A DNA stretch of 46,403 nucleotides, from positions 1 through 46,403 of the IMG/VR virus record IMGVR_UViG_3300044667_000191. The stretch is one strand, 5' to 3'. This stretch comes from a virus (Duplodnaviria; Caudoviricetes). The position numbers and the translations under genes were made by a program. Positions 1 through 20,712 of this stretch are shown here, piece by piece. The notes beneath the pieces are model-generated. The model had not been told where the DNA came from. It ran no database searches and worked only from the letters and a program-made list of their open reading frames with translations. The number at the start of each line of letters is the position of its first letter. The stretch's first letter is position 1.

Positions 1-127
1 TCTGGGTGGGATATGGAAGCCCTGGGTCACGATGTCACGCTCCAACAATTTATGAATTCACCTCAAATTCAAGACGCAATCGCTAGATATAAGCTATCGC
101 AATATCTTAGACAGTATGGATCCCCCG
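1..127. repeat. Terminal direct repeat, left copy (identical to 46277-46403); most likely a circular-assembly overlap
   Basis: Exact 127-nt identity between the two ends; 127 is a common maximum assembler k-mer; the repeat lies mid-ORF. Confidence 0.92.
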
Positions 128-6611: not shown

Positions 6612-6705
6612 AGGGTTATCCCTTGCTTAATTTACTATGGAATGCCAGGGCCACCAAAGCATTCCTTCTGACCGTTCATGCGTGAATCTCAGGGCCACCA
6701 TTAAT

Positions 6706-6993
6706 TCACGCACAATTTTTGCAGTAGCAGATCGCTAGCGTGACTCGGCCATTCGGCCAGACCTTGAATCGCTCTTGCTCGAAGTCAACGAATTCAATTC
6801 CGCACTCGTAGCATTCGCGAATTCCCACTAGCGGGGACGGCTTACCGCAAGCGTAGCATACCGCACGCTGGGTAGTTGGGTCTACCGTCCACCCACCTGC
6901 ATCGTTCGTTCTTTTGACACAGTAACAGAACAATGCGCGCTTTGTTTCGAATGGGATTCTTTGGGGTGGTTTGTCCAGTTCTTCAATTTCCAA
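6706..6993 (-). CDS. Cys-rich zinc-binding hypothetical protein
   Basis: Multiple CxC/CxxC pairs. Confidence 0.6.
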   Translation of the reverse strand: MEIEELDKPPQRIPFETKRALFCYCVKRTNDAGGWTVDPTTQRAVCYACGKPSPLVGIRECYECGIEFVDFEQERFKVWPNGRVTLAICYCKNCA

Positions 6994-6996
6994 TTT

Positions 6997-7230
6997 TCAC
7001 AACCAATCTTTGACAATTCTAAGTGTATTCACCGGCTTGCAAACCAAGCAGGGAAAGTATCCCCAATTGCAAGCTTGCGTCAATTCCACCTGACGACGAG
7101 TCCAATGATTGATAGACAAACCTTCGAGATCTGGATTATTAAGATTCTGACCCCGACGCAAAGCTTCGCAATTAGACTTGTGATACTTCCTTCCACCTTT
7201 AGTAACGGTGACCATTACTGCTGACATCAA
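6997..7230 (-). CDS. Small zinc-binding protein (Ada metal-binding-like pattern)
   Basis: VTKGGRKYH-x3-C...GYFPCLVC; GGAGG RBS. Confidence 0.65.
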   Translation of the reverse strand: MMSAVMVTVTKGGRKYHKSNCEALRRGQNLNNPDLEGLSINHWTRRQVELTQACNWGYFPCLVCKPVNTLRIVKDWL

Positions 7231-7487
7231 TCCTCCAATTCAATTTCATCACTGTATCGAGTTGAGCCTGGATTGAAATAACGAAGTACGATTCGACCTG
7301 TACCATAAATATCAACGTCAATTTCAACACCAGAATACTTTTTAAACACCTCCTCAATTTCCTTTTTCGCCAAAAAAAGCTTTTCCTTGCCAGGGCTTAC
7401 ATATCTATCACATTCACGATGTTGACAGATATCCTGTTTACATGGGCCTTCGTGCTCGTGCAGACAGTGAGATTTCATTTCAGCCAC
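7227..7487 (-). CDS. Hypothetical protein
   Basis: Fills the operon gap; Cys/His-rich N-terminus; start uncertain. Confidence 0.6.
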   Translation of the reverse strand: MAEMKSHCLHEHEGPCKQDICQHRECDRYVSPGKEKLFLAKKEIEEVFKKYSGVEIDVDIYGTGRIVLRYFNPGSTRYSDEIELED

Positions 7488-7493
7488 TTTTTA

Positions 7494-7922
7494 TTAATCC
7501 CCTAAATCTCTCGGATTCAGCGCTCCGCCTTCACCTTCCCAAGTATGGATTGCAATACGCATTTCAATATAGCGCTTCGACATCTTCTTTGGATAGTTAA
7601 CTCTCTTTCTTCTTTTTCCCTGCTTCGGCTCTCTCGCTCGCTTCTCAGATTCATAAAAGCTTGCAAGCTTAGTATTAACTCTATTGAGAAGACGTGGAAG
7701 ATTTCCTTTTTTATTTTTTGTTAGATGAAGGATATTAAACTCCTTGCAGGGGTATTCAGGACAAAAATAAACGAAAAGCTCCCAACCTTTATCCCTGAAC
7801 CTATCCCGAGCAAGACTAGCGGCTTCAGACACCTTAGAGAAGGAAGATCCTTTATTTAGCCTCTTCGGACAATATAATGCCTTTTTCAATCTTTTGCCTT
7901 CACTAGAGTTTTCCCATTCCAA
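7494..7922 (-). CDS. Basic hypothetical protein
   Basis: K/R-rich ORF with C...C..C..H residues; start uncertain. Confidence 0.6.
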   Translation of the reverse strand: MEWENSSEGKRLKKALYCPKRLNKGSSFSKVSEAASLARDRFRDKGWELFVYFCPEYPCKEFNILHLTKNKKGNLPRLLNRVNTKLASFYESEKRAREPKQGKRRKRVNYPKKMSKRYIEMRIAIHTWEGEGGALNPRDLGD

Positions 7923-8479
7923 AATTCTTCATTTAGAGCTACATCAACAGGCGATGCCATGCGTGGATTATGCGGATCATATATTGCTCCCCAAACATAA
8001 TCAGGGTCATTCAATGTATGCCATCTATTGTGACAGAAATGACATATTCTATGAACATTTCCTTTTTCATTATTCAATGTATTCTTATCCGGGCCGTGGT
8101 GGCGGGCCTCCTGTTTTCCATTCAGACATCCTATAATAGGAAGTTTCCCGCCACCGCAATTCTTTTTCATCTGCCATTCGCAATCCGCTTCTGTGTCTAG
8201 CGGATACATTTTGGCAGCACGCTTTCGACCCGTAGACTGCTGATCTTTTAGCGCTGAATCATCTTTGTACGTGCGGAATGCTTGTGCGTCTTCCGATTCC
8301 TGATTATGATCCTCCGAATTTGACGAATCCCTAGAATCATCAACAGTACCAATGCTACCCAAAGGAGAAGGAATACGAATATCTCCATCTGGGAAAAAGC
8401 TAACATCGTCATTGTCTTCACAATTTCCCTTCAGTCGGCATTCATGAAAATCACCTTGGAGACACGCTACACATTTCAT
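7886..8479 (-). CDS. HNH-family nuclease-like protein
   Basis: RHHGPDKNTLNNEKGNVHRICHFCHNRWH matches HH...N...N...CxxCH...H. Confidence 0.7.
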   Translation of the reverse strand: MKCVACLQGDFHECRLKGNCEDNDDVSFFPDGDIRIPSPLGSIGTVDDSRDSSNSEDHNQESEDAQAFRTYKDDSALKDQQSTGRKRAAKMYPLDTEADCEWQMKKNCGGGKLPIIGCLNGKQEARHHGPDKNTLNNEKGNVHRICHFCHNRWHTLNDPDYVWGAIYDPHNPRMASPVDVALNEEFWNGKTLVKAKD

Positions 8480-8506
8480 GCCTCTATTATAGCTTAGGTT
8501 CGTTAA

Positions 8507-8698
8507 TTAGAAAAGGTTATGACAACCGTCCTCATGCCACTCACGATGATTACGACGCAATTCAATTGCATAGTCCTCATCGTCAGCATAATCTGACCAA
8601 CCACATTCGAGCAAAGAACATTCAATTTTAAGAGAAGGACTGATTGTAACTTCAGGCGGCTCCGTGTAAACCCAAGGAGTATACACTATTGCATTCAT
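8507..8698 (-). CDS. Small C2H2-like zinc-finger protein
   Basis: C-x4-CGW...H-x3-H; GGGAG RBS. Confidence 0.6.
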   Translation of the reverse strand: MNAIVYTPWVYTEPPEVTISPSLKIECSLLECGWSDYADDEDYAIELRRNHREWHEDGCHNLF

Positions 8699-8721
8699 CG
8701 TCGCTCCCCAGTGACGAAATG

Positions 8722-8919
8722 CTAATGAGTAAACTGGTTATATACCTCATCAAGTTCGTACTCAGTCAAAGCCATGATTTCTTCATGATTCAATTCATCA
8801 TCAAGAATAGTATTGAAAATCTTTTGCAGACCTTCGCGAACCAAAAGCAAACCTTCAGCTACTCCAGCGCTGTGGCGTACTTTTCGTCTTGCATTTCCGA
8901 GATCCCGTTCATTAATCAT
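8722..8919 (-). CDS. Hypothetical protein (start re-called to ATG 8919)
   Basis: GGAGGAAAA directly before MINERDLG. Confidence 0.7.
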   Translation of the reverse strand: MINERDLGNARRKVRHSAGVAEGLLLVREGLQKIFNTILDDELNHEEIMALTEYELDEVYNQFTH

Positions 8920-8992
8920 TTTTCCTCCAAAAACGCAAAACGGCGAATCATCTTGGAGTATCTGGCCTTCCAATTCGAATTAATCGAACTGG

Positions 8993-9253
8993 CAGATTCC
9001 GAGTGGCCCTACGAAATCACTTAACCAGACTTGCAAGATAATTCGCCGTCATTGCGGTGGAGCAATTACGCCCACTTACTTCCCCCTAATTCCCCGAGAG
9101 GTACGGTCAGTCAAAACCTCTCGGGGAAATTACTAGGGAGCGACGCTACCACCCGTGGTGGCCCGTCATAGTTAGTGTAGCACCTACACCGCCGACTATC
9201 AGCCTTGCAAATATGGACAAAGTGTGCTTCGGATCGAGCCACTTGCCGGTCTG
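8993..9253 (-). ncRNA. ~260-nt structured non-coding RNA of unrecognised family
   Basis: Fills an ORF-free gap. Nested helices: AGTGGCTC/GGGCCACT, CGAAG/TTTCG, CACTT/AAGTG, TTTGCAAG/CTTGCAAG, GATAGTCG/CGAATTATC, plus a perfect 13-bp hairpin (9090-9102/9116-9128). G-U pairs favour the minus strand. Confidence 0.7.
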
Positions 9254-9257
9254 TGGC

Positions 9258-9578
9258 CTATTCAGGCACTCCCCGACCTGCGGTGATCACCCAGAGTGCG
9301 GAATCCTCTTCGTATTTCACTGTGTGACTTACGCCACTCAATTCCGTTTCGCCGGTTTCGGGGTCAGAAAACGCAAATAGGTTTTCACCTAGAGCTTCAA
9401 GTTTATTTAGAAGCCCTGCGACAAGATGGTATATATCATATTCAAATGTCGTAGGCTCTTTTTTAGCCTCGGGAAGATTTGGTTCGTATTGACCGTTTGG
9501 CAAATTTCCAGTCGGCATGAGATTTCGACGTGCTTCGGCCGCATCCAAAGCTGCCGCCATGGCATCTTCACTGTCCAT
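9258..9578 (-). CDS. Hypothetical protein, apparent paralog of the adjacent upstream gene
   Basis: GGAGGGG RBS; shares Y..LV..LN.L..L.E...SG..T....DS..W pattern. Confidence 0.75.
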   Translation of the reverse strand: MDSEDAMAAALDAAEARRNLMPTGNLPNGQYEPNLPEAKKEPTTFEYDIYHLVAGLLNKLEALGENLFAFSDPETGETELSGVSHTVKYEEDSALWVITAGRGVPE

Positions 9579-9829
9579 TATTTAATTCCCCTCCGATACC
9601 ACTCTTTTGAGTCGGGATCAAGACAAATCGTATCTTCTTGACCTGAAATCATCATGAGTCCATCGACGTTTCTAATTTCGATATCTTCGTCAAGGCCCAT
9701 AAGGATATTAAGAGCATTGACCAAATCCTCATACCCTTTATCAATAGGTGTGAAGTAATCAAAATGTTCCTCAACCGCTTCGGTAAGCGTCTGGTAAGGA
9801 CGCAACAACTTCCTATTCGGATTACTCAT
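9578..9829 (-). CDS. Hypothetical protein (start re-called to ATG 9829)
   Basis: GGAGAG upstream of MSNPNRK; stop overlaps the next ATG. Confidence 0.7.
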   Translation of the reverse strand: MSNPNRKLLRPYQTLTEAVEEHFDYFTPIDKGYEDLVNALNILMGLDEDIEIRNVDGLMMISGQEDTICLDPDSKEWYRRGIK

Positions 9830-9899
9830 TACACTTCTCTCTCCAAGTAAATTCCCACAAACGCAGTTCGACAAGCGAACCACGCTTGAATCAATTCAC

Positions 9900-10121
9900 T
9901 TAATGACCATAAGCGTAGCGAATAGCATCTCTTCCCTTATAGCAGTCCTCAGGATTTTCTCCGCACGGTTCCTCTTTATGATTAGAAACCGTTCCACAAT
10001 TAGGGCAAGGGTGCCGACCAGTATTGCAATCCATGCAGCACCATTCACAACCGTCGTCGTCACCGTGATTACATTTACTTAAATCACGAACACACCCTTT
10101 ATCGCCCCACGACATGCCCAT
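9900..10121 (-). CDS. Small Cys/His-rich protein
   Basis: Nine Cys in ~73 aa, including CEWCCMDC and CPNC; start uncertain. Confidence 0.55.
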   Translation of the reverse strand: MGMSWGDKGCVRDLSKCNHGDDDGCEWCCMDCNTGRHPCPNCGTVSNHKEEPCGENPEDCYKGRDAIRYAYGH

Positions 10122-10140
10122 TGATTCTTCTTGTGACAAT

Positions 10141-12258
10141 TTACCCCTCCAGAAACTTTCGCATTGCCTCAGCAATATTCACATCAGCCTCGAAGCCATC
10201 AAGCATTTGCTTTTTCTCGTTCATGATTCCATCCATCAATTCAGTTGCGGTCTCCTCGCAGTGAAGAATGTGAACGATTGAATTGAACTCAGAGTCAAGA
10301 CGACGCACACGGTCCAGCATTTGTTCCTCCTTGCCAGGATTCCACTCCCGGTCAAGAATTACAATCTGCTGTGCACCGCTTAGGTTCAGACCGGTTGAGC
10401 CAGTTTTGTAATTGACAAGAATTACATCAAACTTATGCTCACCAACCTTTGTGTACTTTGCGTTAAAATCATCGACAATCATCTGTCGATCTTTTTGCGG
10501 AGTATCGCCATCGAATCGAGCTGCGCGAATCCCCTTACGAAGTAGTCTTTTCTGCATCTCCTCCAGGCCACGCTTAAATGCAGAAACTACGACAACTCGA
10601 TCACCGTTGTCCACAGCTTCATAGATGAGTTTTTCACCCTCATCCATAATAATGGACTCACCAGGCAAATCCTCAGGCTTCGTGGGCCAAAGAATTTCAC
10701 CAGTACCACACATTTCGCCAGTCTCAGCGTCACGCCAGATATCCCTGATTTCGATTCCGTCGGGCCAAGTTGCAGCTTGTCGCACTCGCGTATACCAAGC
10801 AAGAACATCATTTTGTGTAATTGCTCGACCGTCGGCAAATGCAATCTTCGCGCGCTGCTTCAAGTCTCGCGTGAATGCAGCGTAACGCGGGTAAAGTTCA
10901 TCATCCATGTCAAAGTAATGATGACGAACTTCCTGAGGCGGCATCTGAACGCCAGCAGAATCACGATTACGTGATGTAAACTTCATGCCCAATTTTTTGA
11001 GCAATACTTCAGGTCCACCATGCATAAATACCCATCGCATTCTCGGTGGACCATCGCACGTGCAGTTGTACGAATTCCTTACATTGCAACCTGCGCAACG
11101 CTTTTCACAGTAGTCTTCGAGAAATCTCTCCTCAGAGGGAAATCCCTTGACATCAATCAGATTAAGCATTGGCCACAAGTCATGAGGCCGGTTAAGAATC
11201 GGTGTTCCTGTCATTGGAAAGACATTCTTCACCGAACGGAAGGAATCAAACTTCTCCGGACGCGCCTCGCACTTAAGGCAAATAGTCCTACGCCAAGGTT
11301 GTGCTGCCTTCTCCTTTTCGGAAATCGGAGGAATAGCCGCACCACACTTATTACATTCATTCTCCGCGTAGATAATCTCGTTAATTCCGCGGAATGTAAA
11401 ACTATCCTTACCCTTGAATACGTGGGCTTCATCCAAAATAACAGTGTCAAATCGACAAGCCTTAAGCTTTTCGATAATAGACCTGTCTTTACGCCACACC
11501 TCATAGTTTGTAAGGACAATGCATTCGTCCATCAATCCCATAAGGTCAAGGATTTCCGACTTCAAGCCACGCTTCGTCTGATTCAGCACATGCACGAACT
11601 GATTCGGATACCACTTGCGAAATTCACGCTCAAAGTCCGGAAGGACAGGCTTAAGCGTGAATACCAAAACCTTTTTACCCTTGCCCTGCGCCCGTAGCAT
11701 ATTAACGGCCATAATGGCTTGAAGAGTTTTGCCTAGACCAGGCTTATCGCCAAGAATTGCCCGACCCGCTGCAACCATTCGATGCGCCCCCTCCAATTGA
11801 TGAGGAAGTGCCTTCTTTCCATCGATTCCGACTCGCCACGGGGCATTGTCGGTTGAATGGTCGATTTCCAGCCGCTTACGTCGCATTGCTTCAAGCGCTG
11901 CAAGCTCGGCCATAATTCGAGCCCACTCGCGCTGAAGCTTATCCAATTCCTTCTGGTCGTGACGAATGAAATTCTTCAGTTCGCGACGAGCGTCATCAAA
12001 TGGACGCTTACGCTCTCGAAGCTTCGAGAGAAACAGTTCAACTTGCTTTTGGATCTCGTCAAAGTCCGCCAAGTTAGACTCGACGTCCTTTATCTCACCC
12101 TTGCGAACAGACATCAATTCAATGATGTCTGTCATTCGCTCACGAAGGTCTGCCACACGCTCGAATGTGTCATTGTCCATGACATCGTGTAGCTTATTGA
12201 CACTAGCGAATTGCTTTTCAAATTCGCTCATATCAATAGAGGCGTTCTCATCCTCCAC
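10141..12258 (-). CDS. SNF2-family (SF2) helicase with N-terminal coiled coil
   Basis: LPHQLEG Q-motif, DKPGLGKT, DEAH, MTGTPILN, TGLNL, WNP, RVRR. Confidence 0.93.
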   Translation of the reverse strand: MEDENASIDMSEFEKQFASVNKLHDVMDNDTFERVADLRERMTDIIELMSVRKGEIKDVESNLADFDEIQKQVELFLSKLRERKRPFDDARRELKNFIRHDQKELDKLQREWARIMAELAALEAMRRKRLEIDHSTDNAPWRVGIDGKKALPHQLEGAHRMVAAGRAILGDKPGLGKTLQAIMAVNMLRAQGKGKKVLVFTLKPVLPDFEREFRKWYPNQFVHVLNQTKRGLKSEILDLMGLMDECIVLTNYEVWRKDRSIIEKLKACRFDTVILDEAHVFKGKDSFTFRGINEIIYAENECNKCGAAIPPISEKEKAAQPWRRTICLKCEARPEKFDSFRSVKNVFPMTGTPILNRPHDLWPMLNLIDVKGFPSEERFLEDYCEKRCAGCNVRNSYNCTCDGPPRMRWVFMHGGPEVLLKKLGMKFTSRNRDSAGVQMPPQEVRHHYFDMDDELYPRYAAFTRDLKQRAKIAFADGRAITQNDVLAWYTRVRQAATWPDGIEIRDIWRDAETGEMCGTGEILWPTKPEDLPGESIIMDEGEKLIYEAVDNGDRVVVVSAFKRGLEEMQKRLLRKGIRAARFDGDTPQKDRQMIVDDFNAKYTKVGEHKFDVILVNYKTGSTGLNLSGAQQIVILDREWNPGKEEQMLDRVRRLDSEFNSIVHILHCEETATELMDGIMNEKKQMLDGFEADVNIAEAMRKFLEG

Positions 12259-12577
12259 TTGGATGAATCTCCTTTCCAGCGTCTTTAATTAGAAGAAATT
12301 GTGGAGGAATCGGAGCACCCATTTGGGACGAAATCAGAGGAGAAGAAATCAAGTCCTCTGTCCCTCCTGCGTACACCCCCAACAACATCACCATACGAGT
12401 ATTATCCTCGTTTAGGAGAAATCCGTCCACCAAGAGAGAGTAAAGTTTTTTGTTGAGATCCCAACCATCTACATGTAGAAAATTAAGTGCATTAGCCACG
12501 TAGTCAAAATCAACCTCAGTTTTTTTTGTCTTCGTCAAGTCAAGAAATTTCAGTCGAAACTTAATTGGATCAGCCAT
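12248..12577 (-). CDS. Hypothetical protein
   Basis: AGGAAGGA RBS; overlaps the helicase start. Confidence 0.7.
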   Translation of the reverse strand: MADPIKFRLKFLDLTKTKKTEVDFDYVANALNFLHVDGWDLNKKLYSLLVDGFLLNEDNTRMVMLLGVYAGGTEDLISSPLISSQMGAPIPPQFLLIKDAGKEIHPSGG

Positions 12578-12593
12578 ATCTTTCCTTCCTGTT

Positions 12594-12730
12594 TAAATTA
12601 AGCGGGTCCCTTCGGATTAATGACACGGCGGGCAAGCGGCCCTTAAAGGCGGCCACACGCTCATTCTTCGCTGGGCCGACTTTCGCGGACAGCTTACCTC
12701 GCCGTGTCAAATCCTCTCCCGCTTAATTTA
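12594..12730 (-). ncRNA. 137-nt long-hairpin element, motif copy A
   Basis: Perfect 13-bp TAAATTAAGCGGG/CCCGCTTAATTTA, then GGATT/AATCC, perfect 10-bp TGACACGGCG/CGCCGTGTCA and GGTAAGC/GCTTGCC; fills almost the whole intergenic gap. Confidence 0.7.
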
Positions 12731-12731
12731 T

Positions 12732-13085
12732 TTATCGTGGAATCATGAATTCAGAGCCCATGTGAATATAAGGAAGCCAAGATTGCATATCTTCTGTGCG
12801 ATAGGTGACACACATTTCCGCCGGATGAATCCATTTAATACCATTCAAAAATGTAAGCATTTGCTGCGGCGTTAGATCCTTCACGTGGGCAGCAAAAAAC
12901 TCGCGAAAGTCGAGTCGTCCACTTCGAATATCCCTGGCCATTTCATGAAATGGTCCACTTCGGGAAATGGCTTCTGTGTACCGCCCCTGCTGATCCCACT
13001 CGTGCCAAATCATACGATTGAGCACGGGAATGTTTTGAATGTCGTCCTCGTGCGGCATGAGGACGTATGTTGTGACATTGCTCAT
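12732..13085 (-). CDS. Hypothetical protein
   Basis: AAGGAG RBS; ATGA overlap. Confidence 0.75.
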   Translation of the reverse strand: MSNVTTYVLMPHEDDIQNIPVLNRMIWHEWDQQGRYTEAISRSGPFHEMARDIRSGRLDFREFFAAHVKDLTPQQMLTFLNGIKWIHPAEMCVTYRTEDMQSWLPYIHMGSEFMIPR

Positions 13086-13288
13086 TGCTTATTCTCCTTC
13101 TCCTTTTCCTGATATTCTTCCCATTTCCTTTGAGTAATATAAAGAGTGGCGATAAAAAGTACCAGCTCGCCTCCAAATTTTGTATAATCACGCTCAGAGA
13201 AGCTGATGACCAACCCAATTGCTTGAAGAACGGAAATTACCGTAAGAACAATGTGGAGATTTCCGATTTTCTCGACAAACTTTTTCAC
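13082..13288 (-). CDS. Small two-TM membrane protein
   Basis: Two hydrophobic helices and a charged C-terminus. Confidence 0.7.
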   Translation of the reverse strand: MKKFVEKIGNLHIVLTVISVLQAIGLVISFSERDYTKFGGELVLFIATLYITQRKWEEYQEKEKENKQ

Positions 13289-13323
13289 TTAGCCCTTCAA
13301 TTCACTGGTTTCTTTTACTTGTG

Positions 13324-13421
13324 TAGCCCTGCCAAGATTCGAACTTGGTGCGACACAGATTCGGAAGGGTTAGATTCGAAGGAGTTTACCAAATCTGATC
13401 CGTCGCCTGCCTACCAGGGCC
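13324..13421 (-). ncRNA. tRNA-like RNA with no D-stem and no canonical anticodon arm (98 nt)
   Basis: Acceptor GGCCCTG/CAGGGCT plus discriminator A; T-arm CCAAG-TTCGAAT-CTTGG; 8-nt linker GTAGGCAG; long arm GCGAC/GTCGC + CAGATTTGG/CCGAATCTG with a 24-nt loop; no encoded CCA. Confidence 0.8.
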
Positions 13422-13424
13422 AAA

Positions 13425-13472
13425 CGTAACGGCAATTTCCAGTCATCGGCGTAACCGAAAACTGCCGCTACG
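13425..13472 (-). other. Leader hairpin 3 nt upstream of the tRNA-like RNA
   Basis: CGTAGCGGCAGTTT/AAATTGCCGTTACG, 14 bp with two G-U pairs on the minus strand. Confidence 0.55.
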
Positions 13473-13479
13473 GGTCTAT

Positions 13480-13665: not shown

Positions 13666-13914
13666 TTAATGTGTATAACTGTATCTTGTTTTCACTACAA
13701 ATGCATGATGAATATTTCCTCCCCCAGCTCCACTGTGAATGTCAGAGATACCTAGAATGACAATTGTGTCCTGCATGCTCGCCCATTCTACTGACTCAAA
13801 AGCCGAGTCATCGTAAAAAGTTAGTGGGAGCTTGCCACGCGAATCAAGTTGAATCTCAGGTAGCAGGCGTGTACTAGGAAATCCGCCACTAATCCCGAGT
13901 GCAGTCCATTTCAT
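13666..13914 (-). CDS. Hypothetical protein
   Basis: ATGA overlap with the upstream gene. Confidence 0.6.
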   Translation of the reverse strand: MKWTALGISGGFPSTRLLPEIQLDSRGKLPLTFYDDSAFESVEWASMQDTIVILGISDIHSGAGGGNIHHAFVVKTRYSYTH

Positions 13915-14258
13915 TTTCTCTTATCGTCCTTCGAGGCCGTCTTCCGCATTAGAGGATTAGGATGATTCCCCCATGCCCAATCCAACGCTTCGTCTTTTGG
14001 TCCTCTATGAACCCCCAGAACGAAACATTTGTTGCGCGATTCAATCTGCGCACCAGCGATAAGTGAATCAACGCTGACTGAACCAGCATTTGAATTCCAT
14101 TTGTTTACAAAAAGAACCACCATCCTTTTATCTGTGTACTCGATTACCGATGGCCTAGCTTGAATTTCGTCCTCTTCTTCGACTGGCCAAATTACTACAC
14201 AAATTCTGCCAATGCGTAACTTCGTTTTCTCGCTTGAGAGCCTTCGAGTGGTTAGCAC
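13911..14258 (-). CDS. Hypothetical protein (start re-called to GTG 14258)
   Basis: GGAGG upstream; removes the overlap with the preceding ORF. Confidence 0.6.
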   Translation of the reverse strand: MLTTRRLSSEKTKLRIGRICVVIWPVEEEDEIQARPSVIEYTDKRMVVLFVNKWNSNAGSVSVDSLIAGAQIESRNKCFVLGVHRGPKDEALDWAWGNHPNPLMRKTASKDDKRK

Positions 14259-14266
14259 CGGCTTCT

Positions 14267-14521
14267 TTACCTCCGGGTTTGTGAATTTCCATTCGCACGA
14301 CGAGAACGGCGGGCCTTGCGAGTTTCCTGTTCCTCTTTCCATTCCCTTTCGAGCTTGTCTCGTTCTTGACTCAATTCGAAAATGCTCATCCTTCGAATTG
14401 ATGCTACATACCGCCCCGGAAGTGCACCCACCGGAGAAAGCTTCCGCCTCAAAGCAGAAATTTCACCAAGTAGAATTTCGCGAGCCATCTCTTCGCTTAT
14501 GTTCTGTACTACCATTTTCAC
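14267..14521 (-). CDS. Basic hypothetical protein
   Basis: AGGGAG RBS; helical, Arg-rich C-terminus. Confidence 0.65.
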   Translation of the reverse strand: MKMVVQNISEEMAREILLGEISALRRKLSPVGALPGRYVASIRRMSIFELSQERDKLEREWKEEQETRKARRSRRANGNSQTRR

Positions 14522-14544
14522 TCCCTAGTGCTGAACGCGAGGTT

Positions 14545-14626
14545 CGCAACCTCAAAGCGATAGGTCAAGGAATTAGCTTAAGGGCCACACCTAATTCGCT
14601 GACCTCAACCTATCACTTTCAAGCTA
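14545..14626 (-). other. Long intergenic hairpin carrying a GUGUGGCCCUUAAG loop
   Basis: AAAGTGATAGGT/ACCTATCGCTTT outer stem and GAATTAG/CTAATTC inner stem. Confidence 0.55.
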
Positions 14627-14628
14627 CG

Positions 14629-16011
14629 CTACTTCTTTACGAACATTTCTCGGAACTTAGCAATGCTATCTTCCGAGTTCCGCTTTGTTACTACTTCCAT
14701 TTCGAATGGCTTATCGTTGGTGCGGAAGTAAATGACAACGACCTTACGGCCATTATCATAGGTCCGCGCCTCAACTTCCAAAATCGAATGAATAAGAAAA
14801 GCTTGTTGCAGCGCCCCCTCGGTTTCTCCAAATCTTTTTACTGTTGCCATAAACCCATTAAGCGCCCAATCTGGGAGAGTCTTTGGATCTCCTGTGACTA
14901 CCCTGCCAACAATTTTTGCCTCTTTGTCCTCTTCGAATGCGTCAGCAAATGGAGTAGCCTTTACCGTAACTTGCTTAGGAAACGGTTTCACTTGCTTCAA
15001 ATTATTAGCCTCGACTCCTTCCTTACCGAAATCTATCTCAACCTTTCCGCCGTTCTTCGTGTCGAGTTTAATTTCAGCGCTTGATGGAATTTCGCTAGGC
15101 TTTACTCCAAGCTTATTTGCTACCTGGGAGAACATATCCCAACCGTCTCTAAAGCCAGACGAATATCCTTTCTCTGCATTCTCCTGCGACTTATCGAAAA
15201 TTTCCAACATATCCCTGTCGCGTTGGTCTTCAACATTGACCAAACGCATAATTGCATTCTTCAATTCCAGCATGGCCCGAGCAATGTCATTCATCCTTTC
15301 TTTTTGGTCTTTCACTTCTGCCACGGCCTGGAATTGCTGGTCTACCACTTTGCGCTGGTTCTCGCCAAAATTCGCACCAAGCGAGTTATTAATTGCACTT
15401 ACGTCGCGCTTCAATTCGTGAATCTCGCGCCGCAATTCACGCAAGTCCATACCTTCGGCGTTAGGGGTAATCGCCTGGACCGGACTGGGCGTACCGTGAC
15501 GCTGACGCTTTCTTTCTGCGCGAGTCATATTTACCTTTGGTGCCTCGGATTCGGAATCCTGCTGCGCCGGAATTTCCACTTGCATTTGCTGAACGACCTT
15601 TTCGATGCCGCGCGGCTCCTTCTTTTTGCTGGGTTCGCTCGGCATCACCTTTGCCTTTTCGTCAGACTCTGTCGCCTGCCGACTTGCTTCAGCTTCGAAT
15701 ACCTCAGTCGAAATCCAGAGGTACTTTGCGTGGTGACCATTTGGAATCTCGCCGTACTTCTCGATTTGCTCCCGAACGCGAAGAGTTTGAATTGCACCAT
15801 TTGCGGCACCGACAGTCAGATCAAGCTTGTGGTACTTTCGAATCAGAAACCTGATTGTCTCGGAAGTGAAAGCCACGTCAGGATCGTTAGGCTTTTCAGT
15901 CAGTGAATCCCGATAAGCTCTCATCATTACGTCGAGGACCATTTCAAGCCTAGTCATCTTTTTGGATGCTACTTTTGATTCGTGGTGCTTCTGATTTGTC
16001 ACGATCTTCAC
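14629..16011 (-). CDS. Hypothetical 460-aa protein: possible N-terminal winged HTH plus coiled coil
   Basis: AAAGGA RBS; helix-helix-helix-wing pattern in the first ~100 aa; heptad repeats centrally. Confidence 0.75.
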   Translation of the reverse strand: MKIVTNQKHHESKVASKKMTRLEMVLDVMMRAYRDSLTEKPNDPDVAFTSETIRFLIRKYHKLDLTVGAANGAIQTLRVREQIEKYGEIPNGHHAKYLWISTEVFEAEASRQATESDEKAKVMPSEPSKKKEPRGIEKVVQQMQVEIPAQQDSESEAPKVNMTRAERKRQRHGTPSPVQAITPNAEGMDLRELRREIHELKRDVSAINNSLGANFGENQRKVVDQQFQAVAEVKDQKERMNDIARAMLELKNAIMRLVNVEDQRDRDMLEIFDKSQENAEKGYSSGFRDGWDMFSQVANKLGVKPSEIPSSAEIKLDTKNGGKVEIDFGKEGVEANNLKQVKPFPKQVTVKATPFADAFEEDKEAKIVGRVVTGDPKTLPDWALNGFMATVKRFGETEGALQQAFLIHSILEVEARTYDNGRKVVVIYFRTNDKPFEMEVVTKRNSEDSIAKFREMFVKK

Positions 16012-16017
16012 TTTCCT

Positions 16018-16218
16018 TTAGTTTGGAAACCTGACGCTACCCGAGCACGAACAACCAACTTTGGGATCTTGGCAATCGTGCACATTCAGTGATTGCTCAA
16101 GATTGTGGTAAGCAAAAAAGATTCCCTCAAGTGAAGCGTTCCCGTGAGTGTTCTTTACTTCCTCAAGAAATGTTTTGATTGCACTCTTGAGGTAATCTAC
16201 TTGCTCCTGTGGTGTCAC
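16018..16218 (-). CDS. Hypothetical protein
   Basis: GGAG RBS supplied by the 17-bp repeat. Confidence 0.65.
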   Translation of the reverse strand: MTPQEQVDYLKSAIKTFLEEVKNTHGNASLEGIFFAYHNLEQSLNVHDCQDPKVGCSCSGSVRFPN

Positions 16219-16223
16219 TTCTT

Positions 16224-16240
16224 ACTCCGAGCGAATGTAG
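16224..16240. repeat. 17-bp direct repeat, copy 1 (ACTCCGAGCGAATGTAG)
   Basis: Identical to 16630-16646. Confidence 0.9.
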
Positions 16241-16278
16241 GTTTTTGCACTCCATGCAACTTTCTTAGTCATGCGTTA

Positions 16279-16623
16279 TCACGCTCTTTCGCTCGCTTGG
16301 GTCTTTCTCTTTTTATATTCTTCTCGAAGCTTAATCCAGCATGATTTACAGTAGCCGTCCAGCCCGTCCTTACTTCCTTTTCTTTTGTGAAATTCACTCG
16401 CAGACTTCTTTACTTTACAGCGGTAACATTTTTTTTCAGAAACAACTCCCAATCCTCGACTCACACGATTCACATTTCCTCGTCGATACTTGCGATAAAA
16501 CTCTGATCGACATTCTGAACATTGCACGCAAAGTCCATCAGCTCGACTTGAATCACGCGCAAATTCTTTAACTGATTTCACCTTTTTACAGTGACCACAT
16601 TTCTTTGTGGCATTTTCTGTCAC
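16279..16623 (-). CDS. Tandem zinc-ribbon protein (endonuclease VII/HNH N-terminal-type repeats, no nuclease domain)
   Basis: Two copies of KKCxxCKxxK...EF...DGL...CxxC; start re-called to GTG 16623 after GGAG. Confidence 0.75.
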   Translation of the reverse strand: MTENATKKCGHCKKVKSVKEFARDSSRADGLCVQCSECRSEFYRKYRRGNVNRVSRGLGVVSEKKCYRCKVKKSASEFHKRKGSKDGLDGYCKSCWIKLREEYKKRKTQASERA

Positions 16624-16627
16624 GTGC

Positions 16628-17377
16628 TCACTCCGAGCGAATGTAGTCGAAAGCCAACTGGAAAAGAGTAGGGTTGCTCTGCTGTGCCCGCCTGTTCTGA
16701 AATGCAATTCGATCACGGTACTGATCGAACCAAACAGTTGAGTTATTGAAGTCAGACACTATTTTCAAAACATACCGCAACTCGGCCTCGACCTTCAAAA
16801 GCTCTTTTTGGGCTCCGGCTACAAATTCTTCTTGACCGGCAACACCAGACGTCAATACGACACCTGCCATCGCACGCCGAATTCCATTCGAAATCGAAGT
16901 GCGTAGTAGGTTTTTGTCTGGATCGTTGTTCAACGGATTTGAGTCTGGCGAGACTACAATCTCAAGAAAATCATTAACTGTTTTCATGTCCCCACCAAAT
17001 GGAATGATGGGTACCTCATCGAAGGAATCTGAATCCTCATACATACTCTTGTCTGCCAATTCGTAGGTCATTGCGTTCCCACGCTTGGCAACACTGCGAA
17101 TGAATCCTTTCTTTTCCAAATCATAAATGCAACGGCGAACCGTTCTATCTGTGATATGAGGAATAATTGCAGACAGTTCAGAGACAGTCACTTTTCCTTT
17201 TGAGTCTTTGATTGCCTTAAAAACCATCTGCTCATTACTTTCGGCCAATGCAATACGTGTGAGTGGTGTACTCAATTTGAAATTCCCTCCTCTCGATATT
17301 CGCCGAAGCTCTGCCCGGTGCCCGGTATGTCCGATATAAGGGTCACTTTGAAAAACGGACTTTGACACTTCACCCAT
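16628..17377 (-). CDS. Winged-HTH DNA-binding protein (start re-called to ATG 17377)
   Basis: VTVSELSAIIPHITDRTVRRCIYDLEKKGFIRS...YEL wHTH signature; AAGGAG RBS. Confidence 0.85.
   Translation of the reverse strand: MGEVSKSVFQSDPYIGHTGHRAELRRISRGGNFKLSTPLTRIALAESNEQMVFKAIKDSKGKVTVSELSAIIPHITDRTVRRCIYDLEKKGFIRSVAKRGNAMTYELADKSMYEDSDSFDEVPIIPFGGDMKTVNDFLEIVVSPDSNPLNNDPDKNLLRTSISNGIRRAMAGVVLTSGVAGQEEFVAGAQKELLKVEAELRYVLKIVSDFNNSTVWFDQYRDRIAFQNRRAQQSNPTLFQLAFDYIRSE
16630..16646. repeat. 17-bp direct repeat, copy 2
   Basis: Identical to 16224-16240; encodes the terminal YIRSE of the wHTH gene. Confidence 0.9.
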
Positions 17378-17449
17378 GGTAGCAGACTCCTTCACTGTCA
17401 TGTGTCAAAGTGTCAAAGTCGCAGGTCAGACGTACTTTGACATTGACAC
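17360..17449. promoter_or_regulatory. Cluster of (G)TGTCAAAG direct and inverted repeats (operator or iteron-like)
   Basis: Copies at 17360-68 (inverted), 17402-10, 17410-18, 17435-42 (inverted) and 17443-49 (inverted, partial), straddling the wHTH start. Confidence 0.7.
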
Positions 17450-17456
17450 GCACTTT

Positions 17457-17795
17457 GGCGGGCAGTGCGAGTGTTCGTTCGTTCCTCACTCTCACTGCCC
17501 CGCCGAATGCAACAGTGAAATACCTAGAGCTTGCCTTCACTGTGACAATGTGTGTCCGTTTTGCCCATCGATAGCCTAGTGTGCACTTCATGTGCACATT
17601 AGGCCGTTTGGAGTACATTCGAATTTCTCTGAGACGAAATGCATTCTAACCGAGTAATCGAATTTGTGGACTCGATTACTCTATTGATTGCACTTCACTT
17701 ACGCTTTATGGCAATTCCTACGAATCCACCAGAGTGAAAGTAAAGCGTTGTCGTGTCCATTTGCTTGACTTGATCACCAAGTGATGCAATCCAAT
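17457..17795. other. Hairpin-dense non-coding tract
   Basis: Stem-loops at 17457-17504, 17512-17543, 17574-17604, 17652-17681 and a nested 17683-17795. Confidence 0.6.
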
Positions 17796-17849
17796 TATTA
17801 GCTCGACGCCCTCGCCAATTGGCATGACGAATTGTGCTTCGCTTGTTCA

Positions 17850-18047
17850 TTAGAAAGGAGCTCCATCAAATGTCGTGTTCCACAATGGACGATTAGCCAA
17901 CCGATATACAACACGCTCACTGATGAACATGTCACTGTTACGCCAATACTTCAGCATTACAGTGTCCGTTGGCTCGTACAATCCAGTTCGTACGGCCTTG
18001 CTTCCGCTATATGTGAATGTGATTTCAATTATCTTGCGCAACTTCAC
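17850..18047 (-). CDS. Hypothetical protein (start GTG 18047)
   Basis: GAGGAG RBS; GTGA overlap. Confidence 0.6.
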   Translation of the reverse strand: MKLRKIIEITFTYSGSKAVRTGLYEPTDTVMLKYWRNSDMFISERVVYRLANRPLWNTTFDGAPF

Positions 18048-18178
18048 CCTAAAAGCTCCTCGCAAATCAAGCACTGACCATCCCGCTTTTCACAGTTAAC
18101 GACATGCTCGTACAATTCATCATCAGTCATGTCATCGGAATGGTTTTCACTGTTCTGTTCTGATTCCTCATCCAACAT
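18044..18178 (-). CDS. Very small acidic/Cys protein; start uncertain
   Basis: H-x3-C...CxxC; stop coupled to the next gene; ATG 18178 overlaps a predicted -10, so the true start may be downstream. Confidence 0.4.
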   Translation of the reverse strand: MLDEESEQNSENHSDDMTDDELYEHVVNCEKRDGQCLICEELLG

Positions 18179-18205
18179 GGTGTGGGCGCCCCAAATTCCA
18201 GTCAC
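18174..18205 (-). promoter_or_regulatory. Repeated promoter motif, copy 3
   Basis: GTGACTGGAA-N16-CATGTT, just downstream of a terminator. Confidence 0.55.
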
Positions 18206-18242
18206 GTGAGCTTTTTCGATAAAGGTTTTGTTTGCGCAAAAC

Positions 18243-18277
18243 AAAAAAGCCCCGCAACCTAATTGGTTACGGGGCTT
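18243..18277 (-). terminator. Intrinsic terminator
   Basis: GCCCCGTAACC-AATTA-GGTTGCGGGGC followed by TTTTTT on the minus strand. Confidence 0.9.
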
Positions 18278-18282
18278 AATTG

Positions 18283-18462
18283 CTAATGCTGTCCAGCCTT
18301 ATTCGGAATGATTTGGTGATCATCCGATTGCGGAACTATATGATACCACTTTTTTTCACCACAATGATCAACCGAAATTTGCGTCTTGCATACCATGCAA
18401 ATTCGCGGCGGGTAGGTGCGCGGCTCTAACTGCACCTTGTTCTTCTTACGCCAGATTCTCAT
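18283..18462 (-). CDS. Small basic CxxC/His protein (start ATG 18462)
   Basis: AAGGGG RBS before MRIWRKK. Confidence 0.6.
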   Translation of the reverse strand: MRIWRKKNKVQLEPRTYPPRICMVCKTQISVDHCGEKKWYHIVPQSDDHQIIPNKAGQH

Positions 18463-18477
18463 TTTACCCCTTAGCTG

Positions 18478-18512
18478 AAAATGGCCGAGCAACTTTCGCT
18501 GCCCGGCCATTT
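18478..18512 (-). terminator. Hairpin terminator after the 381-aa gene
   Basis: AAATGGCCG..GCA / TGC..CGGCCATTT followed by T on the minus strand. Confidence 0.65.
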
Positions 18513-18520
18513 CATTTCGC

Positions 18521-19666
18521 TTAGTTCTTGTTTGCGTTTGCGCGGTCCTGCATTGCCTTCTGCTTTGCACTCAATGCAGCAGTTGCCGGACCCTGCGGAA
18601 CACGAGGCAGATTCTCATTTGCCTTAGTGTCCTCATTTACCTTCGCAGGCTCATTTGCCTTTTCGATTGCCTCTGCCTTGTTTTCCTCGGCGGGCTTTTC
18701 GGCAGGCTTTTCGGTTTCGGGCTTCGCGCTGTCGTCCGACTTGTTCTCAGTGTCAGTGGACTTTGCGCGCACATTCCGCGTCACCTTGAACTTCACGGTC
18801 TGCGGAATCTTCGTGGTCTTTTCGTCGTTGGGGTTCTGAACTTCGATGTCACGAGTGAAATCGAATTCCACAACCTCAGGCAGTGCGGCCGAGTCACGGA
18901 ATGAAGCATTGTACGCCTCGTACATGCGGCGCTCCAATGTCTCATCGTCAATCGCGTTGTCCGTGAGCTTCTTTGCGTTCCACTTCTCGTTCAAGACGTC
19001 AGCAGCAATGATGAAATTGCTCTTACCGCCCTTTGTGACGACCACACCGTCCATTTCAACGGTGTCGATGCGTGTCCGGTACTGGCGTCCCTCGGAAATT
19101 CCACCCATGGACTTTCGTCCGCGACCGCCCTTGATGGATTGCACCTCAGGGATGAGCGAAAGTACACCACCGTCGATTGCTTTGCCAGCAATCGTGAGGT
19201 ACTGGTCTGCGATATCGGCGAATGCTGCTGCGCGTGCCTTCTCGTCTTCGATGAGCTTTGCTTCTTCGTTTGCCGCCTTGCGCTCGATTTCGACTTGTTC
19301 CGGAGTGAGCGGCGGCTGAATTTGGGTCTTTGCCCATGCACGAAGCTTATCCTTAAGCTTCATCATTTCTTCGACAACCGCCTGGTAGTTCTTCTCGATT
19401 TCGAGAATTTCAGCCGGTGCCTGATTCGCATTCGTGCGAGTTGTCCAAAGCGCATCCAAGACAGATTCGTCATTGGCGTCCGCTGCGCGCGTCTGCTGAA
19501 TTCGCAGGACACGCGAATTGTGACGTGCAACCAATTCGAAAAGACCGGTGAGGGTCTTTTCGATCATGTCGGTTACCGCTTGAGGCTGACCGGTGTCAGC
19601 GAGGATCGCAGCGAACGGAGATTCGGTCACTGCGTCTTCGGCCTTAACCTCGGTCGTTTCGGACAT
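18521..19666 (-). CDS. Hypothetical 381-aa early protein (coiled coil, charged disordered tail)
   Basis: GAAAGGA RBS; has its own promoter and terminator. Confidence 0.85.
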   Translation of the reverse strand: MSETTEVKAEDAVTESPFAAILADTGQPQAVTDMIEKTLTGLFELVARHNSRVLRIQQTRAADANDESVLDALWTTRTNANQAPAEILEIEKNYQAVVEEMMKLKDKLRAWAKTQIQPPLTPEQVEIERKAANEEAKLIEDEKARAAAFADIADQYLTIAGKAIDGGVLSLIPEVQSIKGGRGRKSMGGISEGRQYRTRIDTVEMDGVVVTKGGKSNFIIAADVLNEKWNAKKLTDNAIDDETLERRMYEAYNASFRDSAALPEVVEFDFTRDIEVQNPNDEKTTKIPQTVKFKVTRNVRAKSTDTENKSDDSAKPETEKPAEKPAEENKAEAIEKANEPAKVNEDTKANENLPRVPQGPATAALSAKQKAMQDRANANKN

Positions 19667-19704
19667 TTCTCGTTCCTTTCGGGTTGGCGTTGCTCCCTAC
19701 CCAG

Positions 19705-19716
19705 ATATTACCACAT
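19705..19716 (-). promoter_or_regulatory. Extended -10 promoter for the 381-aa gene
   Basis: TGTGG-TAATAT about 40 nt upstream of the ATG. Confidence 0.6.
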
Positions 19717-19724
19717 GGCGAGAG

Positions 19725-19960
19725 CGAATCGCGCACCTACGCGCGTTCCAATGCACACAGTTCAGGGTCAGACAGTAGTCATACCGGACGCTGCGTGCAA
19801 AGGAAACAACGCATGGGATGAATTCAAGGTTCGACGCAATTCAGATTACACAGCGCTTTGATATCGCGCTCTCAGACTAATTCGGCATTAGGCACACTGT
19901 TGAATTGAAAAGAGCGAGCAATTCGCGTCTGCGATGAGGCGACTTACGACGCGCTTGCGA
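19725..19960 (-). ncRNA. Candidate ~240-nt multi-hairpin RNA or long leader
   Basis: No convincing ORF; lies directly after promoter copy 2; helices CGCGTC/GACGCG, CGCTCT/AGAGCG, GCGCTGTGT/ACGCAGCGT. Confidence 0.45.
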
Positions 19961-19965
19961 GATAC

Positions 19966-20003
19966 ATACTAGGCGACCAGCCAAAAATTCCACTCGCAAT
20001 TCC
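19966..20003 (-). promoter_or_regulatory. Repeated promoter motif, copy 2
   Basis: GGAATTGCGAGTGGAA-N16-TAGTAT. Confidence 0.65.
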
Positions 20004-20009
20004 AGCCGG

Positions 20010-20052
20010 GCTTTGACCGCGCAGACCAATTCGGCCTGCGCGCGTCAAAGTC
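20010..20052 (-). terminator. Long GC-rich hairpin after the first early operon
   Basis: CTTTGAC-G-CGCGCAG-GCC...GGT-CTGCGCG-GTCAAAG; no U-tract. Confidence 0.55.
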
Positions 20053-20060
20053 AGGTTGGA

Positions 20061-20273
20061 TCACTTACCGGCAGGCGACCAAATGCACCAGAGGACTTTG
20101 CCCGTTTTGCAATCGAATACCTCTGCGACAATCCAGCGGTATCCATCTGCCCCGTCGATTTCTCGGTATTCGTAATCGAGCGGACCGCCAGGAATTTGGA
20201 TGAATTCTGAGCGAGCTACGACCATTTGCGCTGTGTGCTTTGCGTCGGCTACTTCGCGAAACCTCTTCAGCAT
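20061..20273 (-). CDS. Hypothetical early protein (start ATG 20273)
   Basis: GAGGAG RBS before MLKRFREV. Confidence 0.7.
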   Translation of the reverse strand: MLKRFREVADAKHTAQMVVARSEFIQIPGGPLDYEYREIDGADGYRWIVAEVFDCKTGKVLWCIWSPAGK

Positions 20274-20274
20274 T

Positions 20275-20415
20275 TCAGTTCTCCTCGTCGTGAGTGCACT
20301 CTTTGATTGCGCGAATTGCTGCGTCAAGCATGGGAATCAATTCTTCGATCTCCAGCTCGTTCCCGTAGTAGCCTTTTGCGATCAATTCAAGCGCTTCGTC
20401 TTTTTCTGAGGCCAT
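20275..20415 (-). CDS. 46-aa acidic early protein, not in the supplied ORF track
   Basis: MASEKDEALELIAKGYYGNELEIEELIPMLDAAIRAIKECTHDEEN*; AGGAAGGGA RBS; stop lies 1 nt before the next ATG. Confidence 0.75.
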   Translation of the reverse strand: MASEKDEALELIAKGYYGNELEIEELIPMLDAAIRAIKECTHDEEN

Positions 20416-20474
20416 TTCAATTCCCTTCCTTTCTGTGAATTCTTGCGAACCCTTCGAATTGGCCCGACGGATGA

Positions 20475-20512
20475 ATCATGGCATGTTGTCCGAGATTTCC
20501 ACTCGCGATTCC
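20475..20512 (-). promoter_or_regulatory. Repeated promoter motif, copy 1
   Basis: GGAATCGCGAGTGGAA-N16-CATGAT, with TG extension. Confidence 0.65.
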
Positions 20513-20526
20513 GTTTTAGGTTCCGT

Positions 20527-20556
20527 AATCTGCCAGGTACCGTTTTCTCTTGTCAA
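20527..20556 (-). promoter_or_regulatory. Principal-sigma leftward promoter
   Basis: TTGACA-N18-CAGATT with TGG immediately before the -10. Confidence 0.65.
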
Positions 20557-20583
20557 CCATTCGCGCGAACTCAGTTCAAGCCC

Positions 20584-20612
20584 TTGCCGTCAACCAGACG
20601 AACACATAGAAT
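20584..20612 (+). promoter_or_regulatory. Principal-sigma rightward promoter
   Basis: TTGCCG-N17-TAGAAT, divergent from the leftward promoter. Confidence 0.7.
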
Positions 20613-20626
20613 AGGGGCAGCGGAGC

Positions 20627-20712
20627 AAGGAACGCCTAAGCCCCAAATTAGGTTTGTTCCTTAAAAAGAATGCCCACTTTCGGACGGGATTTGGTGGCCC
20701 TAGTCCCGTCCG
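20627..20712 (+). promoter_or_regulatory. Two leader hairpins upstream of the XRE gene
   Basis: AAGGAAC-GCCTAA/TTAGGT-GTTCCTT, and CGGACGGGAT/GTCCCGTCCG enclosing TTGGTGGCCCTA. Confidence 0.6.

Follow-up and report, generated by a model that had tools for sequence, protein, structure and literature searches.

The window analysed here, the whole stretch of 46,403 nucleotides (nt) of the viral record IMGVR_UViG_3300044667_000191, is one complete phage genome, and the phage is an uncultured podovirus from soil. Between its helicase cluster and its exonuclease cluster lies a predicted regulatory RNA with the hairpins H1, H2 and H3, and several genes are accompanied by hairpins with the heptamer GTGGCCC, to which a loop of the RNA is complementary (Table 1). 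Comparison with related genomes establishes the predicted fold of this RNA, its conservation and a complementarity at up to three arms in which RNA and targets change in concert, and it is very likely that RNA-RNA pairing indeed occurs. The comparison was based on seven close relatives from IMG/VR (G001-G004, G005, G006, G010), which together with the window make up eight close genomes with about 70% nucleotide identity across alignable parts. G001-G004, G006 and G010 form one clade of six genomes, while G005 and the window stand apart. Two further records, G011 and L084, were excluded as duplicates, since their protein identities were the same as those of G001. Scans of viral, metagenome and genome collections with a helicase alignment contributed few close relatives among the matches listed.

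A conserved RNA locus between the helicase and exonuclease clusters

The RNA locus has the same position between the two clusters in all eight close genomes, and the order of its elements is also the same in each of them, namely a -10-like hexamer, H1, H2, a long H3, and a U-rich tail, with an overall length of 171-310 nt. A canonical -35 element at normal spacing from the -10-like box of the RNA was not found by eye. The sense strand out-folds the antisense strand in all eight genomes, and the RNA of the window has a predicted folding energy of -121.4 kcal/mol (z-score -10.4; 0 of 200 shuffles). Among six relatives, 19 of the 37 base pairs of H2 and H3 have changed on both sides, which was equalled by none of 500 shuffles, and 98% of the H2/H3 alignment cells are paired, compared to 44-55% with slid pairings; the structure was derived from that same alignment of six relatives, and kinship inflates such counts.

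A covariance model of H3 (R1), built from five relatives with the window excluded, matched positions 9052-8934 of the window with 40.8 bits (E 1.3e-8). The window and G003 were its only two matches in 27 sources. The model misses G005, the H3 of which is reduced, and it had no match in G007-G009, G012-G015 and the phages DS1 and Jasmine. Neither 151 actinomycete genomes nor 14 additional viral records yielded a match to the model, both searches being run without a positive control. When 50,697 phage records were searched at the nucleotide level with the RNA region, there was no match; blastn and nhmmer missed the RNA in the relatives as well, where synteny and the covariance model found it. 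The 23 matches of a sequence pattern derived from H3 comprised five known members and 18 unrelated sequences. No Rfam match was obtained for the window (E up to 1), for positions 8850-9350 (E up to 10), or for the loci of four relatives.

A preliminary description of this DNA had placed the RNA at 8993-9258, with a GGCCAC copy at 9253-9258 as its 5' edge. The conserved RNA instead extends from 9167 to 8929 on the minus strand, behind the -10-like box, and the GGCCAC copy falls upstream of the predicted promoter. Two further complements of the heptamer had been proposed. The core of the one at about 9002-9011 is exposed in the apical loop of H3, with an unpaired probability of 0.94-1.0 over five bases, and it had seemed partly paired before because the boundaries used for the RNA were wrong. 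The one at 9156-9164 does lie inside the RNA, but it is locked in the H1 stem, with an opening cost of 12 kcal/mol, and this second copy is confined to the window.

Several further features were observed around the RNA locus. A motif hairpin is present after the last gene of the helicase cluster, upstream of the RNA promoter, in L275 (about 290-335) and likewise in G002, G003, G004, G006 and G010; it is missing from both the window and G005. Transcription reading through this region would yield one transcript with both this target and the RNA. In G002-G006 the first gene downstream of the RNA has a ribosome site or start codon that is complementary, as judged by eye, to the apical loop of the RNA itself, which might represent a pseudoknot in cis; this is not the case in the window, G001 and G010. 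The intergenic region between helicase and exonuclease is also strongly folded in L390, L391, L392 and L393 (G423-G426), G008 and G014, and these regions were not detected by the H3 model.

Table 1. Positions of the predicted RNA, its parts, and its putative targets in the window (ORF, open reading frame)
Feature	Position	Strand	Remark
Predicted -10 hexamer of the RNA promoter	9174..9179	-	One mismatch to the hexamer of the relatives; same relative position in 8/8 close genomes
Predicted regulatory RNA	8929..9167	-	About 239 nt; H1, H2, small extra hairpin, H3, U-rich tail
H1 hairpin	9142..9167	-	Contains the self-paired 9-nt complement of the target loops (9156-9164)
H2 hairpin	9079..9141	-	Loop at about 9101-9110, complementary to the exonuclease-leader spacer and the whiB 3' end
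H3 long stem	8939..9050	-	Conserved 4x5 internal loop (9030-9033/8956-8960) and side hairpin (8970-8993)
H3 apical (docking) loop	9002..9011	-	Complementary to target hairpin loops; core invariant in alignments
Target hairpin 1, exonuclease leader	6677..6714	-	Overlaps the stop codon of ORF 6993-6706
Single-stranded spacer site	6668..6675	-	Complementary to the H2 loop
Target hairpin 2, exonuclease leader	6639..6665	-	Ends 28 nt before the start codon at 6611
PD-(D/E)XK exonuclease gene	5676..6611	-	Main conserved target; PF12705, E 3e-17
Sak4-like annealing protein gene	4618-5409		Follows the exonuclease gene; phrog_1218 and phrog_124 (exonuclease/Sak4-like pair)
Target hairpin between two ORFs	14555..14618	-	After the stop of ORF 16011-14629, before ORF 14521-14267
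Target hairpin, leader of XRE-family gene	20681..20712	+	Gene 20749-21327; strand opposite to the other three hairpins
3'-terminal site of the whiB-like gene	882..890	+	Gene 592-897; complementary to the H2 loop, 9 Watson-Crick pairs

Hairpins with the GTGGCCC motif

The heptamer GTGGCCC occurs 12 times in the window, compared to an expectation of 2.9, and none of 100 shuffles reached 12. The six non-coding copies reported in the preliminary description were confirmed, and they contrast with 0.21-0.22 copies expected in the 3,464 non-coding bases. GTGGCCC is the top-ranked 7-mer of the non-coding DNA (Bonferroni p 7.5e-4), while the six copies in coding DNA do not clearly exceed chance (p 0.056); one of them, at position 152, lies inside a conserved ORF across the assembly junction. 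Chance matches among GC-rich, terminator-like hairpins might be invoked, because short matches are common, the motif was chosen after the fact, and half of its 12 copies are coding. However, the enrichment survives correction over all 7-mers, and together with conservation, covariation and the out-of-sample matches in relatives described below, this leaves the chance explanation strongly disfavoured.

Four copies are located in or at the apex of stable hairpins of the sense strand. The hairpin before the XRE gene is on the plus strand, and the other three are on the minus strand. The two exonuclease hairpins together have a folding z-score of -3.2, and the values for the hairpins at 14555-14618 and 20681-20712 are -5.0 and -4.2, respectively. 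All positions and stems that had been quoted are present in the sequence. Several of the leader hairpins also sit at or just past the stop codon of the preceding gene. A motif variant in a further hairpin (12651-12658) is paired in the stem and not in a loop, and this hairpin, which has no homologue in the 11 other records searched, was rejected as a target. Two very stable intergenic hairpins, at 12590-12730 (z-score of the inner part -7.6) and 13421-13473, have no nucleotide homologue in the relatives, and the latter scores 24.7 bits on the H3 model via its stem only.

Conservation in related phages extends to the RNA, the loop motif and the target hairpins alike. Motif hairpins are present at the place of hairpin 1 in all seven close relatives, as a tandem pair in six and as a single hairpin in G005, and in every one of them the sequence after this hairpin can pair with the RNA of the same genome. 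Most relatives keep motif hairpins after the gene for a winged helix-turn-helix (wHTH) protein, before the RNA promoter, at the whiB stop codon (six relatives), and before the first early gene. The hairpin before the XRE gene is absent from the XRE leaders of the seven relatives, and neither of the genes flanking the hairpin at 14555-14618 has a homologue in them. RNA positions 28-36, which are paired in the base of H2, have a match at the ribosome site at 14521-14529 as well. Stop-codon read-through into the exonuclease gene was rejected because of a gap of 94 nt and a different reading frame. Matches of 7-8 nt that link the XRE leader to the RNA linker were also rejected, since a search of that size would produce them by chance.

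Complementarity between RNA loops and target sites

The H3 loop of the window can form 8-9 Watson-Crick pairs with the target loops, or 10 when G-U pairs are included. Loops that are complementary to the H3 loop of their own genome were found in 26 of 578 non-coding hairpins of the sense strand, compared to 3 of 524 on the antisense strand (p 2e-5), when the eight genomes were pooled and the RNA's own locus was removed. In coding DNA the numbers were 28 of 4,729 sense hairpins (p 5e-12 versus sense non-coding) and 20 of 4,354 antisense hairpins. The complementarity follows lineage-specific changes. In the window four of four targets have a C directly following the core hexamer, matching an extra G of the H3 loop, and a C at this position was seen by eye in only 1 of 22 target hairpins of five relatives. 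In G005 both the H3 loop and its target are shifted, and seven of seven pairs are retained.

As an alternative, the motif could be the site of a phage protein, either a DNA operator for the XRE, wHTH or WhiB protein or an RNA loop recognized by an RNA-binding protein, and the complement in the RNA would simply be the other strand. This would fit with a short motif that is repeated near regulatory genes, has one copy in the XRE leader, and retains its hexamer core in different genomes. However, the strand-independent placement typical of an operator was not observed. The sites are tied to the transcribed strand and change orientation with it, as the counts above illustrate, and three arms covary with different letters, which makes a DNA operator unlikely. 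Only the RNA exposes the complement on the sense strand, and a single protein site could not explain two further arms that are complementary with genome-specific letters. In addition, the divergent promoter region contains other conserved repeats that would be more plausible as operators. Therefore, we regard recognition by a protein as very improbable.

One such repeat is a 23-nt element, present at 19981-20003 and 20490-20512 in the divergent early/XRE region and conserved in several relatives; it adjoins tandem -35-like boxes and is a better operator or promoter candidate than the loop motif. The wHTH gene has at its start an element of 28 nt (17403-17430), with 89-93% identity in G002, G004 and G006 and partly present in G003, which is a candidate operator or origin.

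In the six-genome clade, two further loops of the RNA have matches in the exonuclease leader. The H1 loop can pair over 6-8 nt with the single-stranded spacer between the two hairpins in all six genomes. The H2 loop can form 8-9 pairs with the ribosome region in five of the six, and 6 pairs in G004, where by eye the pairing is longer across a one-base bulge. The stretch matched by H2 begins at the Shine-Dalgarno sequence and comes as close as 1-7 nt to the likely start codon (distances by eye). For each of these two contacts only 2 of 720 permutations of RNAs to genomes scored as well as the true assignment, the matches having first been spotted by eye and tested afterwards. Out of sample, H2 matches of at least 10 nt follow 3 of 29 other motif hairpins, compared to 1 of 1,227 control hairpins (p 4e-5); these matches, of 10, 11 and 13 nt, are all on ribosome sites of other early genes. 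The corresponding result for H1 is weaker (2 of 29 versus 9 of 1,227 at 8 nt, p 0.025).

The H2 loop of the window, with an opening cost of 0.8 kcal/mol, has eight Watson-Crick pairs with the spacer in addition to its match at the whiB 3' end. In G005, it is the linker between H2 and H3 that can pair over 10 nt with the spacer of this genome. At least two segments of the RNA match the exonuclease leader in all eight close genomes. The loop segments have opening costs of 0-5 kcal/mol, compared to energies of -4 to -18 kcal/mol for the isolated duplexes. The more distant G007, with a helicase of 33% identity, has a syntenic RNA with an unrelated sequence, the apex of which can form eight pairs with a loop of the exonuclease leader, while a side loop can form seven pairs with the start codon region; this genome has a separate canonical terminator. 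The pairing letters differ in the window, G005 and G007, and the complementarity is kept. In G014 the apex of a long stem has seven pairs to an exonuclease-leader loop, possibly a further case. Loop matches of 6-8 nt in G008, G012, G013, G015 and G423-G426 are at chance level.

Possible mode of action

The preliminary description had considered one small RNA that pairs with exposed loops on several leaders. This proposal is well supported by the sequence comparison, and it seems to extend further than anticipated, as extra arms of the RNA are complementary to extra sites. We consider it probable that the RNA acts as a multi-target antisense RNA, which docks loop to loop on early mRNAs of the phage, with translational repression as the main outcome. 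It would be transcribed from the -10 box and end at the U-rich tail after H3, or it may run on as a leader; mycobacterial RNA polymerase has been reported to need a U-tract (PMC3993855). Its H3 loop would nucleate binding by a kissing interaction with the loop of a target hairpin, and a second arm would then pair with the single-stranded spacer beside that hairpin. In the six-genome clade, the H2 loop would cover the region from the Shine-Dalgarno sequence to the start codon and thereby exclude the ribosome. In the window, H1, H2 and H3 are arranged antiparallel and colinear with hairpin 2, the spacer and hairpin 1.

Several points weigh against this interpretation. The support for every family member comes from sequence comparison and predicted folds. 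The eight genomes represent only three lineages, so that the permutation values overstate independence, and the sense and coding labels of the hairpin counts were based on crude ORF calls and approximate strand boundaries. Among 11 more distant genomes, pairing was found only in G007 and possibly in G014, and phage DS1 shows no such pairing. The H2 loop of G003 is pyrimidine-rich, and it equals its own match at four of seven foreign exonuclease sites. The H2 loops of the window and G005 do not match the exonuclease ribosome site (three and four pairs), and the H2 loop region of the window has other 8-nt sense matches within coding DNA; its two matches described above count only because they are at conserved target places. 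No loop of the window's RNA covers the exonuclease ribosome site, and the use of H1 would carry the cost of opening its stem. Any repression in the window would thus need a steric effect or decay, the weakest step of the account, and masking of the ribosome site is an outcome that for the window is borrowed from the relatives. The sites at the whiB stop codon and upstream of the RNA promoter have no downstream ribosome site to block, which favours added roles in decay or as decoys.

The same pairing could have a transcriptional outcome, if it promoted or relieved termination at the target hairpins, or if the RNA were a 5' leader of the exonuclease operon acting in cis. Like terminators, the target hairpins mostly lie across a stop codon or immediately behind one, the RNA lies upstream of the exonuclease gene on the same strand, and the first gene behind the RNA has, in five relatives, a start region complementary to the apical loop, as mentioned above. 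Furthermore, the CI RNA of satellite phage P4 pairs with two sites and shuts off the P4 replication genes by terminating transcription (PMC4825925). However, the tracts after the exonuclease-leader hairpins are A-rich and not U-rich. The whiB and XRE targets, far upstream and on the opposite strand, are out of reach in cis, and the H2 matches fall on ribosome sites in six genomes. Altogether, a transcriptional outcome appears unlikely.

Alternatively, pairing might guide cleavage, with RNase III cutting the kissing complex, or it might protect or activate the message instead of blocking the ribosome. The absence of a ribosome site at the whiB 3' end and at the site before the RNA promoter would be in agreement with cleavage or stabilization, and the long H3 stem with its internal loop resembles RNase III substrates such as R1.1 of phage T7. 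RNase III cleaves the duplexes of RNAIII and coa mRNA, including a loop-loop contact (PMC2837412). However, cleavage or stabilization alone leaves unexplained that H2 tracks the ribosome-site sequence in six genomes, and in models of the free leader the exonuclease ribosome site is mostly unpaired, so that an activator would have nothing to open. As the main outcome we judge these mechanisms to be quite improbable, somewhat more so than a transcriptional one. They are compatible with translational repression, and both may act together.

Comparison with known regulatory RNAs

The C4 and CI RNAs, with a length of about 77 nt, are processed RNAs of enterobacterial phages, and the RNA described here is three times longer. 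C4 of P1 and P7 (RF01695; PMC8198154, PMC2864571, PMC5499578) and CI are also phage-encoded, lie upstream in the region that they control, and act on more than one site of phage transcripts; C4 is required for full repression of P1 ant (PMC8198154). In common with them, the RNA of the window has two separate segments that are complementary to paired target sites downstream in the same direction of transcription. However, C4 and CI are RNase P substrates (PMC5499578) that control one operon, CI by termination, while the RNA described here has three arms, with complementary sites at genes on both strands. It has no sequence or structure match to the C4 model RF01695 or a related one.

RNAIII of Staphylococcus aureus combines masking of the coa mRNA's Shine-Dalgarno sequence with a loop-loop contact (PMC2837412). 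This combination would fit the complementarity in the six relatives, but not the exonuclease site of the window. RNAIII is a chromosomal effector of quorum sensing in Firmicutes, whereas the RNA of about 240 nt described here is phage-encoded and addresses, by prediction, phage genes with dedicated hairpins; it has no Rfam match to RNAIII and is found in a phage context, not an agr context. PreS (LPR1) of phage lambda and VpdS of a Vibrio phage are phage-encoded, trans-acting, base-pairing RNAs with many targets (bioRxiv 10.1101/2024.10.31.621285). Similarly, the RNA family described here has a conserved structure with exposed pairing segments that covary with targets at other loci. In contrast, PreS is bound by Hfq and acts with one seed mainly on host mRNAs, while here several loops are complementary to the phage's own mRNAs.

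Few phage-encoded regulatory RNAs have been described (bioRxiv 10.1101/2024.10.31.621285), and a literature search, thin on subscription journals, retrieved no report of one for Streptomyces phages or related actinophages. A set of 10,006 candidate structured RNAs of viruses, partly derived from IMG/VR 3.0 (PMC10690425), may hold a fragment of the RNA as an unannotated model. The comparisons point to a real, conserved, and apparently undescribed family of phage RNAs with a predicted multi-site antisense action. Its distinguishing feature is the combination of three contact sites, covariation within each genome, and an out-of-sample test.

The phage and its putative host

An exact repeat of 127 nt is present at both ends of the window (1-127 and 46277-46403), and it is most likely the assembly overlap of a circular contig. 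A conserved ORF of 233 amino acids spans the junction (45827 to 252). The window encodes a P22-like portal protein, an SU10-type capsid protein and adaptor, an SNF2 helicase, a PD-(D/E)XK exonuclease, a Sak4-like protein, an XRE regulator, and a WhiB-like regulator. No integrase or partition family was found among 72 ORFs scanned against Pfam. Side observations among the late genes are a gene of the Acb2/Tad1 anti-defence family (32538-32768, E 5e-12) and a poly-gamma-glutamate hydrolase domain (25601-26893, E 3e-56). Five palindromic 6-mers are wholly absent from the window, while 14-26 are expected on two strands, which is consistent with the avoidance of restriction sites.

The nearest named phages are Cellulosimicrobium phage DS1, the Arthrobacter phages Jasmine and Adat, and Microbacterium phage Shocker, with 42-45% capsid identity. 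Many uncultured relatives are closer, and public data contain more than 80 helicase clusters at more than 40% identity, with the group nearest to the window at 65-69%. In the collection searched there was no cultured close member (best capsid match 45%). The capsid protein had weak matches in only 2 of 401 actinomycete genomes, and it matched no plasmid record. Streptomyces is the likely host, because two helicase relatives bear Streptomyces names. One of these, a helicase with 50% identity to the query protein P0021, stems from an assembly of Streptomyces griseosporeus, on a contig of 46,429 bp, the size of a whole phage, which could represent either a carrier state or a contamination.

Biological implications

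The predictions specify targets and pairing bases at the level of single nucleotides, and natural compensatory variants exist in several lineages. The RNA would likely serve to shut down early genes, either at a late stage of infection or during a carrier state. The genes concerned would be the first early gene, the gene after the wHTH gene, the exonuclease-Sak4 pair, whiB, and, in the window, the XRE gene. If this is true, the RNA would be an example from nature of an antisense design with several arms in a Gram-positive host of high GC content, and for this phage family it would be a candidate switch of the life cycle; it could also yield orthogonal pairs of RNAs and leaders for the engineering of Streptomyces.

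A more far-reaching idea, which we put forward only tentatively, is a master switch of the phage that is based on RNA only, with address hairpins on the first early gene, the recombination module, and the transcription regulators, all of which would be read by one three-armed RNA. The three arms would read address, spacer, and ribosome site together, and the code would have been rewritten by lineage, i.e. in the window, G005, the six-genome clade and G007. If it exists, such a switch may set the early-to-late or the carrier-state decision, as well as phage-specific exclusion, across a large family of uncultured Streptomyces podoviruses.

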